Shown here: positions 2,655-11,877 of the stretch, in pieces
Position numbering within the stretch: position 1 is the first letter of the stretch
Layout: the number at the start of each line of letters is the position of its first letter
Made by a program: the position numbers and the translations under genes
Notes under the pieces: generated by a model
Told to the model about the DNA's origin: nothing
Seen by the model: only the letters and a program-made list of their open reading frames with translations
The model's database searches: none
Source: a virus
Taxonomy: Duplodnaviria; Caudoviricetes
Direction: 5' to 3' (one strand)
Virus record (IMG/VR): IMGVR_UViG_3300038365_000119
Coordinates: 1-50,512 of that record
Length of the DNA: 50,512 nt

Positions 2655-3695
2655 TTAGACAAGCGCGGCGACGCATTCCCGGAACATCATTTCGGCGGTT
2701 TTCCAACCAAATATCGCCCGCGGGTAGTTGTTCACCCATTCTTCAAGCTTCTTGATTGCGGCGACGGTGACTTTCCCAAAATCGGTTCCTTTCGGGTACT
2801 GTCGCCGTATCATTTTGTTCTGATTCTCGTTTGACCCTCTTTCGAAACTACTGTACGGGTGGCAGTAATAGAACTTTGTGCGCGGCCCTTTCCTGATTGC
2901 GGACCTTTCAAGCCTTTTCACGTCGGAGAACTCCACCCCGTTGTCAACCGTGATCGTTTGGAACACCTTTTTGAACAGCGGGCCGTACCGCCTTTCGATT
3001 CGGTCAAGGCCCTTGATCGTGCTTTCCTCGGTCCGGTCCTTGATCGGCTCTATGATCTCTTTCCGGGTCAACCGCTCCGTGAGTACAAGAAGCGTTTTCT
3101 TTGAAGATTTTTTCGCGCTGTAAACGGTATCCATTTCCCAATGACCGAACGTTTCCCGCGCGTCGATCTCCGCCGGGCGGTTCTCTATGCTTTCCCCGCG
3201 CGGCGGGCGCTTCATCTTTTGAACTTTATGATAGGGGCGTTTCTTTTTCGGCTTCACGGGCAAATCATTGTTCGTGAGATGAAGAAATACCCCTTTTTCA
3301 ATATAGCTGTATAGGGTGCTTGTGCAAATAGTAGTTTGGAACTCTATTCCTTTTTGCTTTATCTCCCCAAGAGCGGCGGCGGGGGAATAGTCCTCTTCTA
3401 TTATTTTTTCCTCTATGTAATCGACAAGCTTAAAATCTCTTCCGATTTTCAGCGGCGCGCCTTTCGCGGAAAGGTTTTCCCGGTACTTCTTTTCGGCTTC
3501 GTCCGGGTTGTAGCGGATTTCGGTTGTCCAGTCGGTATTTAGATGCGTGTATGTCCCGCGCTTCAATTCCCGGTATACCGTGCTGATATGCACATGTAGT
3601 TCCTCTGCAATTTCCGCCGGGCCGTGCCCGTTGTTCCGCAATGCTTCGATTTTATAGCGGTCTGTCTTTGAAAGATGTTTGAATCTGCGCCCCAT
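2655..3695 (-). CDS. IS30-family DDE transposase (346 aa), probable phage integrase/excisase
   Basis: N-terminal HTH (FKHLSKTDRYKIE..HISTVYRELKRG); DDE motifs GHWEMDTV, TITVDNGVEF, YSSFERGSNENQN; ATG at 3695 after GGAGGT RBS. Confidence 0.93.
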   Translation of the reverse strand: MGRRFKHLSKTDRYKIEALRNNGHGPAEIAEELHVHISTVYRELKRGTYTHLNTDWTTEIRYNPDEAEKKYRENLSAKGAPLKIGRDFKLVDYIEEKIIEEDYSPAAALGEIKQKGIEFQTTICTSTLYSYIEKGVFLHLTNNDLPVKPKKKRPYHKVQKMKRPPRGESIENRPAEIDARETFGHWEMDTVYSAKKSSKKTLLVLTERLTRKEIIEPIKDRTEESTIKGLDRIERRYGPLFKKVFQTITVDNGVEFSDVKRLERSAIRKGPRTKFYYCHPYSSFERGSNENQNKMIRRQYPKGTDFGKVTVAAIKKLEEWVNNYPRAIFGWKTAEMMFRECVAALV

Positions 3696-3713
3696 ATCAT
3701 TACTACCTCCATA

Positions 3714-3756
3714 GGAAAAACCCCGCCCATGCTTCGGTGCAAGGACGGGGCTTTCC
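3714..3756 (-). terminator. Terminator-like hairpin in the transposase leader
   Basis: Minus strand gccccgtccttgc..gcatgggcgggg followed by ttttt, just before the RBS. Confidence 0.5.
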
Positions 3757-3804
3757 GCGTTGTCCGCGGGCGGTAATTTTCCTCTTGCTCCCTCGGTTGC
3801 TATA

Positions 3805-3837
3805 ATTATAGCACGGGGGATATACTCACGCAAGTAT
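3805..3837 (-). promoter_or_regulatory. Sigma-A-type promoter of the transposase with operator over the -35
   Basis: TTGCGT (3833-3828), 17 bp, TG-c-TATAAT (3810-3805); operator ATACTCACGCAAGTAT at 3822-3837. Confidence 0.7.
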
Positions 3838-3862
3838 AAAATAATATGGGATAGGAACGATA

Positions 3863-4105
3863 TTATTCTTGTGTCATCAGCCAATCAAGGCTTACGCCTA
3901 ATATTTTAGATAGTGCCATGAGTTCATAGTCTGCGACAAACCGGGTTCCGCTTTCAATTCGGCTTACGCTGTCCCGCTCCATTGTGATACCTGCTATCTG
4001 CAATTTCGCGGCAAGGTCGGCTTGCGTCATGCGTTGTTTTAACCTCGCTTCCCTCACGCGTCCGCCGCAAAGGTTACTTTTTCCTTTGTAGCCATATATT
4101 TTCAT
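3863..4105 (-). CDS. XRE-family HTH transcriptional regulator
   Basis: RVREARLKQRMTQADLAAKLQ..RDSVSRIESGTR HTH_3 pattern. Confidence 0.85.
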   Translation of the reverse strand: MKIYGYKGKSNLCGGRVREARLKQRMTQADLAAKLQIAGITMERDSVSRIESGTRFVADYELMALSKILGVSLDWLMTQE

Positions 4106-6087: not shown

Positions 6088-6195
6088 ATTGTATCACGTT
6101 TCTTATACTCACGCAAGTATAACTTTTGCATAATATCACGTGAGTATATTTGTTCAAAATTCCCCCTTGATTTAATACTCACGTGAGTATATAAT
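6088..6195. promoter_or_regulatory. Divergent promoters with three palindromic operators
   Basis: Minus: TTGCGT-17-TACAAT. Plus: TTGATT (6167)-17-TATAAT (6190). Operators at 6105-6120, 6132-6147 and 6175-6190 (last is the perfect palindrome ATACTCACGTGAGTAT). Confidence 0.75.
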
Positions 6196-6235: not shown

Positions 6236-6586
6236 ATGACGTTTTGCGAAATGTACGAAAAGAATTGTGCGGAATGCCCGAACCGCTATGTATGTGAGAA
6301 CAGCACCATAAAGCCCAAAATGCGGGCCGGGAAAACATACAAAGGATTTAGCCGGGCGCAACTGATTGATATTTTAGCCGAATACGCCGTGTTCACCGCG
6401 AAAGTCAACAATAACCACGGCGGGGCAAAGATGAACACCGTAAAAAGCGATTATGTCGGTTTATATCAGACGTACCCGCTGTCCTCAAAAAAATATCTGG
6501 TTTTTTCGCTATCGGTCATGTACGACAAGATGAACACTGAAATTGAAAAGGCAAAAGAAATCGCTTCCTTTTCGGTTTTACGGTAA
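6236..6586 (+). CDS. Hypothetical protein with Cys-rich N-terminus
   Basis: GGAGG RBS and promoter upstream; FCEMYEKNCAECPNRYVC. Confidence 0.65.
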   Translation: MTFCEMYEKNCAECPNRYVCENSTIKPKMRAGKTYKGFSRAQLIDILAEYAVFTAKVNNNHGGAKMNTVKSDYVGLYQTYPLSSKKYLVFSLSVMYDKMNTEIEKAKEIASFSVLR

Positions 6587-6596
6587 GATCGCAAAG

Positions 6597-6659
6597 CCCG
6601 CCCGATGATGGCTTGCCGGGAACAAGCCGAAACCCCCGAACGGGGGTCGCGGGAACCCG
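6597..6659 (+). ncRNA. Putative variant type I hammerhead ribozyme
   Basis: Stem I cccgc/gcggg; core CCGAUGA plus extra U; stem II ggcttg/caagcc; GAAA; stem III ccccc/ggggg; GUC site at 6646-6648. Confidence 0.6.
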
Positions 6660-6770
6660 TCGGCATAGGGGACAACATGCCGCCCCTTTTATATAGATTG
6701 TTCTTTGACAACATCATAAATCGAAAAGGCAAAGGAAAACGCTTCCTTTGCAGAAGCGGCGAAATGGGGA

Positions 6771-7010
6771 ATGAACATGAACAAGGTTAGGCGCGCCGCA
6801 CTCCGCGAAATCATCGACAAGATCGCCGACGCAAAGGACGCGCTGGAAATACTGAAAGATGAAGAAGAGGAATACCGCGACAACATTCCCGAAAACCTGC
6901 AAGGCTCCGAACGGTATCAAACCGCCGATGAAGCTTGCGACGCTCTGTATGAAGCCGTCAGCCAGCTTGAAGAGGCTGGCGACAATATCGAAACTACCGT
7001 GGGCGAGTAG
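6771..7010 (+). CDS. Small acidic coiled-coil phage protein
   Basis: 79-aa ORF, MNKVRRAAL...EEEEYRDNIPENLQGSERY; followed by a terminator. Confidence 0.7.
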   Translation: MNMNKVRRAALREIIDKIADAKDALEILKDEEEEYRDNIPENLQGSERYQTADEACDALYEAVSQLEEAGDNIETTVGE

Positions 7011-7020
7011 CGCCCAACAG

Positions 7021-7058
7021 AAAAAGCCCGCCGTGGGTAAAACCTCGGCGGGCTTTTT
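7021..7058. terminator. Bidirectional terminator at the end of the late operon
   Basis: aaaaagcccgccg...cggcgggcttttt. Confidence 0.8.
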
Positions 7059-8633: not shown

Positions 8634-8951
8634 TCATTTTTGGGCCGCGGCGCTCTCCATCCTGTCAATCCGTTTGTGTGCCTGTTTTGCGGATTCTTCC
8701 ACGCTTGTCAGCCGGGCAATAACTTCAATGTGCTGGGCTTCCTGCTTTTCGTCCTGTCGTTCCTGCTTTCGCTTGATGTCGTCGATTCCGGATTTTATGT
8801 ATCCGATTTCGGTTAGGACGGTTCCGTTTTTTGCGCCGTCGCCTTGATCGTCTTTCTTTCGGTTCCGGTTAAAAGCCGCATACCCGAATACAATGGCGCA
8901 CACGGTACTGATACCCCCAAGAACGGCGATTACAGCGTTTAACTCATTCAA
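8634..8951 (-). CDS. Lysis-module membrane/coiled-coil protein (holin or XhlA-like)
   Basis: N-terminal TM segment, C-terminal VEESAKQAHKRID; start overlaps the RT stop. Confidence 0.6.
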   Translation of the reverse strand: MNELNAVIAVLGGISTVCAIVFGYAAFNRNRKKDDQGDGAKNGTVLTEIGYIKSGIDDIKRKQERQDEKQEAQHIEVIARLTSVEESAKQAHKRIDRMESAAAQK

Positions 8952-10033
8952 TTTTCCACCTCCGCTTCCCGATAGATTCGGTTCAGCTTTTGCCGGAACC
9001 CGTAACTGTTGAAGTGTTTCAGCATTCCCCGATAGGAAGCGATACTTCGATCAAAAGTTTCCCGCGAAATCTCGCCGCTTTTAAGCGCCGACGAAAGGAA
9101 TTTGACGCGGCTTTGAATCTTCTGCGCGGTTTTCTTCTTTAGCTTCCGGTGCGTCGCCCATATCCGGTAGCCGACAAAATCAATTCCCATACTGCACGGC
9201 CTGATTGCGGTTTTCCTGTTCAGGTTCAGCCGCAATTTGTCGTTCATGAAAGCTTCGATCTCTTGCTTTACCTGTGCAAGAAAACGCTTGTCCGGGTGAA
9301 GAATGATAATGTCGTCCATGTACCGGACGTAATAGTGAAGCCGTAGAACGTGCTTCGCGTATTGGTCCACTTCGTTCAAATAAAGGTTTGCGAACATTTG
9401 CGACGTGAGATTGCCTATCGGCATTCCCACGTCGTCCAGCCATTCGTCCGGCCCGATTGCGTCGGGGTCGCACCCCAGCGGCAAGCCGAATTTCGTATCT
9501 TCGCATTGAATGATCGTCGTAAGCAGATCGATTAGTGTTTTGTCCTTGATTTTCCGGTTTAGAATCTCAATCAGCACTTCATGATCTACCCGGTAGAAAT
9601 ATTTCGAAACGTCCAGTTTCAGGTAATAATACCGTTCCGGCTTCCGCTCCGTTTGCCGTAACCAATACTGCAAGCGGTTTGCGGCCCGGTGCGAGCCTTT
9701 CCCTTTCCTGCAAGCGTAGGAATCGAAAATGAACTGCTTTTCAATGAGCGGGAAAAGCTGCCGGTATATCGCCCATTGAACCACGCGGTCACGGAACGGC
9801 AACGCCATGACAAGCCGCTTTTTCGGCTCGAACACGTAAAACGGGCGGTACTTGCCCGCCCGATAAGTCCCGTATATGAAATGGTTCTGAATATCTATCA
9901 GGTTCGATTCAAGGTTTCTGGAAAATCTCATGACCTCTTCGCGGTATCGCTTGCCTTTCCGCGCGGATTCCCAAGCCTGATAAATGTTTTCAAAATCATA
10001 AATTTTAGGGAATAGGCCCTTGATCGTTTCCGT
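8948..10033 (-). CDS. DGR reverse transcriptase (~361 aa, apparent ACG start)
   Basis: PFRDRVVQ, YLKLDVSKYF, GMPIGNLTSQMFANLYL, YVRYMDD, GIDFVGY; frame stays open 34 codons upstream of the ORF-track ATG to an ACG after AGGAGG; next to TR and avd. Confidence 0.93.
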   Translation of the reverse strand, partial: TETIKGLFPKIYDFENIYQAWESARKGKRYREEVMRFSRNLESNLIDIQNHFIYGTYRAGKYRPFYVFEPKKRLVMALPFRDRVVQWAIYRQLFPLIEKQFIFDSYACRKGKGSHRAANRLQYWLRQTERKPERYYYLKLDVSKYFYRVDHEVLIEILNRKIKDKTLIDLLTTIIQCEDTKFGLPLGCDPDAIGPDEWLDDVGMPIGNLTSQMFANLYLNEVDQYAKHVLRLHYYVRYMDDIIILHPDKRFLAQVKQEIEAFMNDKLRLNLNRKTAIRPCSMGIDFVGYRIWATHRKLKKKTAQKIQSRVKFLSSALKSGEISRETFDRSIASYRGMLKHFNSYGFRQKLNRIYREAEVEN

Positions 10034-10237: not shown

Positions 10238-10353
10238 AGCGGCGCGGAAGCCGATGTTGTGATTCACGTTCGAGCGCGGATTGTTCAAGTTCAGGGCACC
10301 CACGCCCGCGTTGGACGCATTGTTCCAGTTCGCCCCGCGATACGGCAACCGCT
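10238..10353 (-). ncRNA. DGR template repeat (TR), 116 bp
   Basis: Lies between avd and RT; ten AAC/AAT codons; differs from both VRs only at adenines. Confidence 0.95.
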
Positions 10354-10797: not shown

Positions 10798-11877
10798 TCA
10801 GTTCCCAGCGGTTCCATAAAAAGCGGCGCGGAAGCCGATGTTGCGAAACACGTGCGAGCGCGGAGCGCTCAAGTTCAGGGCACCCACGCCCGCGTAGGAC
10901 GCATAGTACCAGCTCGCCCCGCGATACGGCAACCGCTCCGCTTCGTGGTTTCTAAGCCAAAAGTGATTCCCTGCGCTTGTAAATCCGGAATCGGGATAAA
11001 GCCCCAGCCCTTTCAGCAGTTGCGGAACATTCACGCCGTCGGCGGCGGAAATGTTTTTCAGATCGTCGTTTCTGTCGCCCTCTCCGCTTGACGGGAATTC
11101 AACCGCCGTGTTCAGCCTGATTCCTCCGCTCGCGCTTTTCCCGTCAAATTTTAGGGTTCCCGCGGTCCCCGGCGCGACAAGCGAACCGTCCGGCATGATC
11201 GCTTTCCATTCCGTGCTGTCCGCTCCCATGTTGCAATCCGCTTTCATGGCGTTGCCGTATGGGATAATCTGAATTTCACCGGTCACAAGGCGCAACCCGG
11301 AAACCCATTCCCACACATTCCCGCAAAGGTCCGCGATGCCCGAACTGTCGTAATTGTGATACCACGTAACCGGTCCGCTCCCCGTCGCGGTTCTGCCGTT
11401 GTAGGTGTTGCCGCCGTCTGTGTACGTGTAGGAAACAACGCCCTTTTCAAAAGCGTTGTTGTAGTCCTTTCCGTAATTGGTATTCCCGTGCGGCTCCGTC
11501 TTGTTTTTATAGCACCAGTTCATAAGCGCCCCCCAAAGGGCGTTCGTTTGCAGGTGCCACCCCGCCCCTTTGTTCCGGCAGACCTGCAAGGCGGTATCAA
11601 AGTCAATGCTCGCGCGGGGGTCCTTGAACGGCAGGGAATAGGCCCGGTCGCTCACGACGATGTTTTGATATTTGCTTTCGTAGATCACCGGGATTTCCAC
11701 GCCGTCAACAAGGAACGCCGGAAGCGTGTCCTGCGTCCCGCCCGTGATAACGTCGGCGTATTTCTGGACCGGGATGGCCACCATGATCGACGGCATTCCC
11801 AAGTCGTCCAGAATCACGGTGTTTTTCCCGCCGCTCAACGATTCGACGGCAAGTTTCAGGTCATCAAAATTTGTCAT
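10798..11877 (-). CDS. DGR target protein 1 (FGE-sulfatase/C-type lectin fold), probable receptor-binding protein
   Basis: DLCGNVWEW and C-terminal RGASW...IGFRAA; contains VR1; at the end of the tail module. Confidence 0.88.
   Translation of the reverse strand: MTNFDDLKLAVESLSGGKNTVILDDLGMPSIMVAIPVQKYADVITGGTQDTLPAFLVDGVEIPVIYESKYQNIVVSDRAYSLPFKDPRASIDFDTALQVCRNKGAGWHLQTNALWGALMNWCYKNKTEPHGNTNYGKDYNNAFEKGVVSYTYTDGGNTYNGRTATGSGPVTWYHNYDSSGIADLCGNVWEWVSGLRLVTGEIQIIPYGNAMKADCNMGADSTEWKAIMPDGSLVAPGTAGTLKFDGKSASGGIRLNTAVEFPSSGEGDRNDDLKNISAADGVNVPQLLKGLGLYPDSGFTSAGNHFWLRNHEAERLPYRGASWYYASYAGVGALNLSAPRSHVFRNIGFRAAFYGTAGN
10822..10937 (-). repeat. DGR variable repeat VR1
   Basis: 116-bp match to TR with 11 substitutions, all at TR adenines. 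Confidence 0.95.

Follow-up and report, generated by a model that had tools for sequence, protein, structure and literature searches.

A candidate type I hammerhead ribozyme with C at core position 4, from a large subfamily of phage hammerheads

The role of prokaryotic and phage hammerhead ribozymes is termed an open question of the field in a passage of PMC6155905. A narrower question is raised by the virus record studied here (50,512 bases, rated 100% complete; the whole of it was analysed and is referred to as the window). Between two small genes it carries a 63-base stretch, positions 6597-6659 on the plus strand, which an initial annotation described as a variant type I hammerhead whose core departs from the canonical one by U4C and a 1-nt insertion. 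Is such an element a genuine self-cleaving ribozyme, given that bench mutagenesis portrays position 4 as one that tolerates no change, whereas C4 recurs in nature? We consider it probable, at roughly 0.65, that 6597-6659 is a genuine type I hammerhead self-cleaving ribozyme belonging to a large phage subfamily, with a predicted cut 3′ of C6648.

Anatomy of the element

The TAA stop codon of the upstream gene (6584-6586) is separated by 10 nt from stem I, which is formed by CCCGC (6597-6601) and GCGGG (6649-6653) and is present in the sequence as well as in the minimum free energy (MFE) fold. The core box CCGAUGA (6602-6608) reads C3 C4 G5 A6 U7 G8 A9 and is followed by an extra U at 6609, the two together occupying 6602-6609. 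Stem-loop II (6610-6628) consists of six pairs between GGCUUG (6610-6615) and CAAGCC (6623-6628) and of a loop at 6616-6622, in which CGGG (6617-6620) provides the 5′ half of a predicted pseudoknot, the 3′ half being the complementary CCCG at 6656-6659; this pairing would supply the tertiary contact expected of a natural hammerhead. GAAA (6629-6632), which corresponds to G12 A13 A14 A15.1, is invariant in alignment A1. Stem-loop III (6632-6647) pairs 6632-6637 with 6642-6647 around a GAAC loop, and its closing pair A6632-U6647 is the 15.1-16.1 pair. The stop codon, the three stems, the core, the extra U, GAAA, position 17 and the complementarity of loop II to the tail all lie where the initial annotation had placed them.

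Measured against the hammerhead core, C6602, G6604, A6605, G6607 and A6608 supply C3, G5, A6, G8 and A9, GAAA with the A6632-U6647 pair supplies G12 A13 A14 and A15.1-U16.1, and C6603 stands where the U-turn has a U at core position 4. Both deviations that had been named, the U4C substitution and the inserted base, are thus present. Hammerheads cut 3′ of position 17 and leave a 2′,3′-cyclic phosphate and a 5′-OH. Applied to the fold, this rule puts the predicted scissile bond at 6648/6649, 3′ of C6648, which occupies position 17 (where G would not be expected), and directly 5′ of G6649, the first base of the 3′ strand of stem I.

The type I three-way junction is exactly the MFE fold of 6597-6659 (−27.9 kcal/mol). 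The z-score of this fold relative to shuffled sequences was −1.33 for 6597-6659 and −0.68 with flanks, so thermodynamics by itself is not decisive. We then searched both strands with a relaxed type I descriptor that accepted a core C[U/C]GANGA with 0 or 1 inserted base and required at least 4 pairs in each of the three stems. It gave 1 match in the real window compared to 2 in 300 dinucleotide-preserving shuffles of the whole window, that is, a chance expectation of about 0.007 matches per window. A looser descriptor covering types I, II and III returned no further convincing hammerhead within the window.

Relatives of the element in phage contigs

Viral contigs were scanned with a pattern made of the variant core with C4, the extra U and the ends of stem II (C4+U pattern). 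It was found on 110 viral contigs, in 124 instances counting that of the window, and a complete hammerhead fold was parsed in 109 of these 124. The folded instances comprise two circular permutations, 57 being of type I (27 distinct) and 52 of type III (28 distinct). When the 15 unparsed instances were inspected by eye, 7 had a single mismatch or were cut by the end of the contig and 8 resembled chance matches. The same parser accepted 7 of 120 instances from bacterial genomes, which were mostly chance matches in G+C-rich DNA, indicating that it is not lenient; two of the seven, both from Oscillospiraceae MAGs, looked genuine.

We built a covariance model, R1, from ten gapless sequences, two of them with C4. 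R1 gave 92 and 75 matches in two sets of 64 loci plus the window, corresponding to 166 distinct hammerheads in 128 loci and the window. In the resulting alignment A2, 98.1% of the cells pair (31-41% with slid partners) and both sides change in 15 of 17 pairs, with 377 compensatory cells, values reached by none of 500 shuffles; since the loci had been pre-selected by the stem-demanding fold parser and the alignment was fitted to the model, these counts lean towards structure, and the unselected figure is the 109 of 124 given above. All three helices covary, helix 1 in 5 of 5 pairs, and the closing A-U pair of stem III is retained in 92 of 92 aligned relatives. The loop II/CCCG pairing proposed by the initial annotation covaries across the type I relatives as well: in 55.7% of 140 unique type I sequences, loop II and the 3′ tail of the same sequence can be joined by 4 or more contiguous Watson-Crick pairs, compared to 22.2% of permuted combinations, and many different helices are used for this pseudoknot among the 140. 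Covariation in homologs, by which the annotation had suggested that its reading be judged, was found in the stems and in the pseudoknot. With the occurrence of the same variant core on 110 viral contigs in both permutations, it constitutes strong comparative support for identifying the element as a variant type I hammerhead.

Judged by these sequences, the subfamily is defined by an extra U between A9 and stem II, by a stem II of the form GGC...GCC and by a short pseudoknot that joins loop II to the tail 3′ of stem I. It is large, and it is hosted by temperate phages of anaerobic and gut-type communities. The copy of the window departs from the subfamily consensus at core position 4 alone, where it has C for U. 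An extra base after A9 also has an example among viroid hammerheads; here the base is U and is common across the phage subfamily. According to excerpts of Eckert & Weinberg 2023 (PMC10085705), known alignments contain hammerheads with one or two nucleotides inserted at this junction of core box and stem II. The prophage and phage type I hammerheads treated in parts of Perreault et al. 2011 (PMC3088659) resemble the window copy in their three-way junction with an open stem I, in GAAA, A15.1-U16.1 and C17, in a pseudoknot-type tertiary contact that ties loop II to the stem I side and in their location beside small phage genes, whereas the window copy has C instead of U at position 4. In these parts of the same paper, phage hammerheads are described as flanking single genes and as cleaving in vitro and in E. 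coli, and the loop-to-tail pseudoknot contact as required for fast cleavage at low Mg2+ (PMC3088659).

Two observations were made on the relatives. Tandem arrays, a feature shared with the phage hammerheads of PMC3088659, were seen in five related phages (L213, L304, L341, L311 and L249), which group 4 to 7 hammerheads of type I in a few kb; in these arrays U4 and C4 cores, with and without the extra U, are mixed inside one phage. Moreover, at the start of the 3′ cleavage product, the 3′ strand of stem I tends to pair with a downstream copy of the 5′ strand of stem I. At least 5 pairs are possible in this hairpin for 43% of 139 type I hammerheads (L083-L368 and the window) compared to 22% of controls. 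Such a hairpin might make cutting irreversible or might shield the new 5′ end.

Type I phage hammerheads presumably fall under the Rfam family RF00163 (Hammerhead_1). Searching the whole window with Rfam 15 at the gathering score yielded 0 matches, and searching 6400-6900 at E≤10 yielded no hammerhead and three chance-level matches to unrelated families only. No hammerhead was detected by Rfam on 20 loci with C4 hammerheads, on five loci at E≤10, or on 20 loci with canonical U4 relatives plus L008. The models thus stay below threshold on the window copy and on the relatives examined, canonical ones included. The initial annotation had put forward a search against the Rfam hammerhead models as a check of its reading. 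The missing match does not discriminate and carries no weight against the window copy, since canonical relatives are missed too; we accordingly abandoned the silence of Rfam as an argument. Rfam misses the whole large phage type I subfamily with the extra U and the loop II/tail pseudoknot, so that ribozymes are under-counted in phage genome annotation. At about 2178-2227 of L008, some 270 nt upstream of a homolog of the phrog_4068 gene that follows the element in the window, lies a compact type I hammerhead with a canonical core that was found by descriptor and missed by Rfam at the gathering score.

Cytosine at core position 4

A pattern combining U4 with the extra U occurred on at least 118 contigs, and 113 of 123 instances fold among the matches listed. 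The extra U is common in the phage subfamily, leaving C4 as the only unusual feature. When the pattern had C4 without the extra U, 26 of 58 instances folded and 32 were chance matches. Most of the core was held constant in each of the three pattern scans, so decay at other core positions is invisible in their counts.

The frequency of C4 was estimated from two samples that were not selected on position 4. Among 29 instances of one stem II class, 25 have U, 4 have C and none has a purine. Among 40 bystander hammerheads, found by R1 outside all patterns, there are 34 with U, 5 with C, 1 misregistered row and no purine, with the reservation that R1 tolerates C4 better than other core changes because its seed holds two C4 rows. 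C4 hence makes up 12-14% of the two samples (n = 29 and n = 40), and it is a recurrent natural minority form. Both type I and type III hammerheads have it, whether or not the extra U is present. In rows with C4 only, pairing reaches 97.8% and 99.7% and 12 of 17 pairs are compensated, and the largest C4 clade (L085, L111 and L097) has accumulated compensatory changes in stem II while keeping C4. Some hammerheads differ just at position 4: the edit distance is 0 for the pair L145/L350 and 1 for L246/L270. The existence of U4 and C4 versions of otherwise identical ribozymes in related phages makes the effect of C4 measurable in native sequences.

Phage hammerheads, pseudoknot contacts and one-base insertions are already known, and we found no printed report of C4 as a widespread and stable form of phage hammerheads in the two topologies. 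In the literature searched, the U4C hammerhead was met as a viroid case only, in parts of PMC3088659, a paper whose supplementary alignments may contain C4 examples. The combination of CCGAUGA with a hammerhead was met only in a paper on therapeutic ribozyme design.

The best-surviving alternative to a functional ribozyme is that the element descends from an active U4 hammerhead, that U4C abolished cutting or nearly so, and that the element persists as a structured 3′ UTR or spacer, with further decay still to come. We regard this as unlikely. Weak activity of CUGA-turn mutants at the bench speaks for it: in a comprehensive mutagenesis of a type III hammerhead, single and double mutants of the turn had low activity and a C-G swap was the sole rescue, according to sections of PMC9901934, and U4C "considerably decreases activity in vitro" in the words of a passage of PMC3088659. 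Yet the variant in question, a viroid hammerhead reported by Ambros & Flores 1998 and described in that passage, is infectious and functional in vivo despite its reduced activity in vitro (PMC3088659). It has the same core substitution as the window copy and is a single variant, whereas C4 in phages recurs over many lineages, in types I and III and in a stable clade.

The history of the window lineage also fits the loss of an active U4 ancestor. Among the matches listed for the U4 scan, which fixed U4, the 8 nearest relatives that share the 3′ module of the window (see below) carry U4 (8/8), the nearest of them at an edit distance of 15 of 72. C4 thus looks recently derived in the lineage of the window, though the U4 scan could return only U4. 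The pairs of sequences that differ just at position 4 are likewise those expected from recent single mutations. A closer comparison was offered by contig L489, from a fermentation metagenome of another sample, which was the only match in metagenome_contigs to an exact 30-nt stretch that had 0 matches in viral_contigs. L489 is about 90% identical to the window and shares its gene order, and neither C4 nor any other part of the core has changed in it. The 63 bases of the ribozyme are free of substitutions between the two, but the whole right side, from about 6590 rightwards, is 98-100% identical compared to 88.3% in the 116-aa gene upstream, so this conservation carries no selection signal and reveals no extra constraint on the ribozyme.

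Against the loss of activity stand the frequency of C4 and the absence of purines in the two samples unselected at position 4, its presence in both topologies with and without the extra U, and the compensatory stem changes inside C4 clades. In the window, the remaining core bases, the three stems and the pseudoknot are all intact.

A further alternative is that C4 persists for its effect on cleavage, which it would slow or render dependent on a condition such as Mn2+, pH or temperature, the U/C transition setting the fraction of the two-gene transcript that is cut. The recurrence of the U/C polymorphism in otherwise near-identical hammerheads and the restriction of position 4 to U or C are in line with it. 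There is also a precedent in the intergenic hammerhead of phage Bcep176, which like the one studied here has a natural change of a single core base, at position 6 instead of 4: its A6C change has a measured preference for Mn2+ in the parts of Naghdi et al. 2020 (PMC7151607) available, which indicates that natural core variants can be conditional and not dead. The same U/C pattern is equally expected from transition-biased mutation that is neutral or slightly harmful, and the samples are small (29 and 40); we hold such tuning to be very unlikely. Finally, a chance hammerhead-like fold in an ordinary intergenic terminator or attenuator region, which would agree with the lack of any Rfam hammerhead match even at E≤10, the weak thermodynamic z-scores and the terminator-like hairpin directly downstream, is scarcely credible given about 0.007 matches expected per window by chance, more than 100 homologous instances, in two circular permutations, whose stems and pseudoknot covary, and canonical relatives that Rfam misses too.

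The two-gene unit and the possible role of cleavage

The 116-aa gene (6236-6586, plus strand) precedes the element. A promoter-like site on the same strand at 6167-6195 (TTGATT, a 17-nt spacer and TATAAT; 10/12 hexamer matches) is overlapped by operator-like palindromes (repeats D3, D4, I1, I7 and I12) and is likely, on the strength of these motifs, to be the start of the ribozyme-carrying transcript. The region 6104-6195 holds three operator-like palindromes (core TCACGTGA within ATACTCACGTGAGTAT) that overlap divergent promoter-like sites and sit between a minus-strand 121-aa gene and the 116-aa gene; L489 keeps one of them. No Pfam or PHROG family was assigned to the 116-aa protein and peptide patterns revealed no relative of it in viral_contigs. 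A protein search found 13 homologs, none of them named, and in 7 of 8 homologs fetched the conserved part stops at IASF. The downstream 79-aa gene (6771-7010, plus strand) matches phrog_4068. At 7021-7058, a 16-nt inverted repeat (repeat I2, 94% complementary, with A and T runs at its flanks) is likely to act as a two-way terminator closing the operon against the convergent lysis genes, which include a GH25 endolysin.

The sequences show the motif, its recurrence in a family, the covariation of stems and pseudoknot and the genomic setting; transcription of the element, cleavage after C6648, the rate permitted by C4 and the effect on the two genes are what we infer. Transcription would proceed from the operator-overlapped promoter at 6167-6195, the element forming the spacer between the 116-aa and 79-aa genes. 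The RNA would fold into the three-way junction, with the pseudoknot keeping stems I and II side by side, and an internal transesterification 3′ of C6648 would separate the two cistrons. The upstream mRNA would then end in stems II and III with a 2′,3′-cyclic phosphate, while the downstream RNA would begin with a 5′-OH at G6649, its first bases being able to refold as a small hairpin ahead of the conserved terminator-like hairpin and U-run at 6667-6690. It is plausible that self-cleavage at 6648/6649 processes the operator-controlled transcript in this manner, as the initial annotation had suggested. The locus makes a simple test bed: it has a single promoter, two small genes, one ribozyme and a downstream hairpin that is conserved, so that the effect of cleavage on each gene can be tested.

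The ribozyme is followed on the plus strand by a conserved 3′ module (6660-6690), which contains UCGGCA (6660-6665), GCCGCC (6679-6684), a hairpin pairing 6667-6671 with 6683-6687, and a U-run at 6687-6690. Among the matches listed, the module is common to nine other contigs (L257, L267, L277, L293, L321, L357, L361, L368 and L489), and UCGGC[A/U] and GCCGCC are invariant in the consensus of these relatives. Both sides change in 3 of the 5 pairs of the hairpin, which resembles a terminator as the U-run directly follows it; for this covarying hairpin of 5 pairs with UUUU and a loop of 11 nt, the predicted energy is weak, and the terminator scan gave no call. A conserved sequence box (6691-6712, plus strand; alignment A4) comes after the U-run. 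It was not called as a sigma-70 promoter, and inspection by eye across the sequences revealed no conserved hairpin in it. RNAalifold proposed an alternative hairpin, 6646-6652/6657-6664, that would span the cleavage site and compete with stem I and the pseudoknot; its bases barely vary, and we treat it as a hypothesis. The CGGC of the module has as alternative partners GCCG or the GUC at the cleavage site. Folding of the module as an H-type pseudoknot (CGGC/GCCG and GGGG/CCCC) was rejected on geometry: the two 3′ strands would abut without a linker, leaving just 3 nt of loop to cross both helices.

These pairings allow a more specific and, in our estimate, quite unlikely proposal, in which C4 is a setting: one transition would turn a fast U4 form into a C4 form that is slower or conditional, or back, and would thereby set the fraction of transcript that is cut. 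In the lineage of the window, the cut would free CGGC (6661-6664) from the GUC of the cleavage site, and the freed CGGC could rival the hairpin 6667-6671/6683-6687, coupling the ribozyme to read-through into the 79-aa gene.

A 32-nt direct repeat brackets the ribozyme and the 3′ module. Copy 1 (6540-6571, plus strand) belongs to the 116-aa gene, as its true 3′ coding end. Copy 2 (6718-6749, plus strand), 91% identical, is placed immediately between the 3′ module and the 79-aa gene and includes a hairpin at 6729-6751; it is non-coding, a remnant whose frame agrees with that of the 79-aa gene but is closed by a TAA at 6717-6719. The jump in identity to L489 at about 6590 (from 88% to 98-100%) suggests a recombination joint, and together with the repeat it suggests that the ribozyme and the module were acquired or exchanged as one cassette. 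No second copy was found within the record except for the 32-nt repeat, and a blastn search of a phage collection gave no related match and one unrelated short one. None of the listed datasets that contain the stretch is recorded as RNA. The assembled contigs of four wastewater runs, which we guess to be RNA, contain a relative about 89% identical and other hammerheads that share 6597-6633.

A general link between the ribozyme and the phrog_4068 gene was considered and rejected, as R1 matched the window alone among 81 sources with the gene; 1 of 81, the window itself, thus carries a hammerhead of this subfamily. Other RNAs, with folds unrelated to the hammerhead, occupy comparable places next to phrog_4068 homologs: Twister-P5 (RF02684) at 2134-2188 of L021 and 2738-2796 of L022, and RAGATH-8 at 693-962 of L011 and 710-985 of L023. 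Twister-P5 also occurs at 4007-4064 of L105, about 350 nt from a C4 hammerhead, and a gut-2 RNA at 4777-4824 of L144 is among the RNAs lying near C4 hammerheads or phrog_4068 homologs. A short G+C-rich motif ending in the ribosome-binding-like AGAAAGGA was seen just upstream of the start codons of different genes in L003, L004, L005, L031 and L055, and may be a leader element.

Elsewhere in the window, the minus-strand gene at 8948-9931 codes for a reverse transcriptase (Pfam RVT_1) and lies near a 116-nt repeat pair (10238-10353 and 10822-10937, 91% identical). Gene and repeats are presumed, from this layout, to constitute a diversity-generating retroelement, the repeats being its presumed template and variable copies; the presumed variable repeat is at the 3′ end of the ORF at 10798-11877 (minus strand). 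Another minus-strand ORF of this phage record, at 2655-3884, combines HTH_38 and rve integrase-core domains, a pair that fits an IS30-type transposase.
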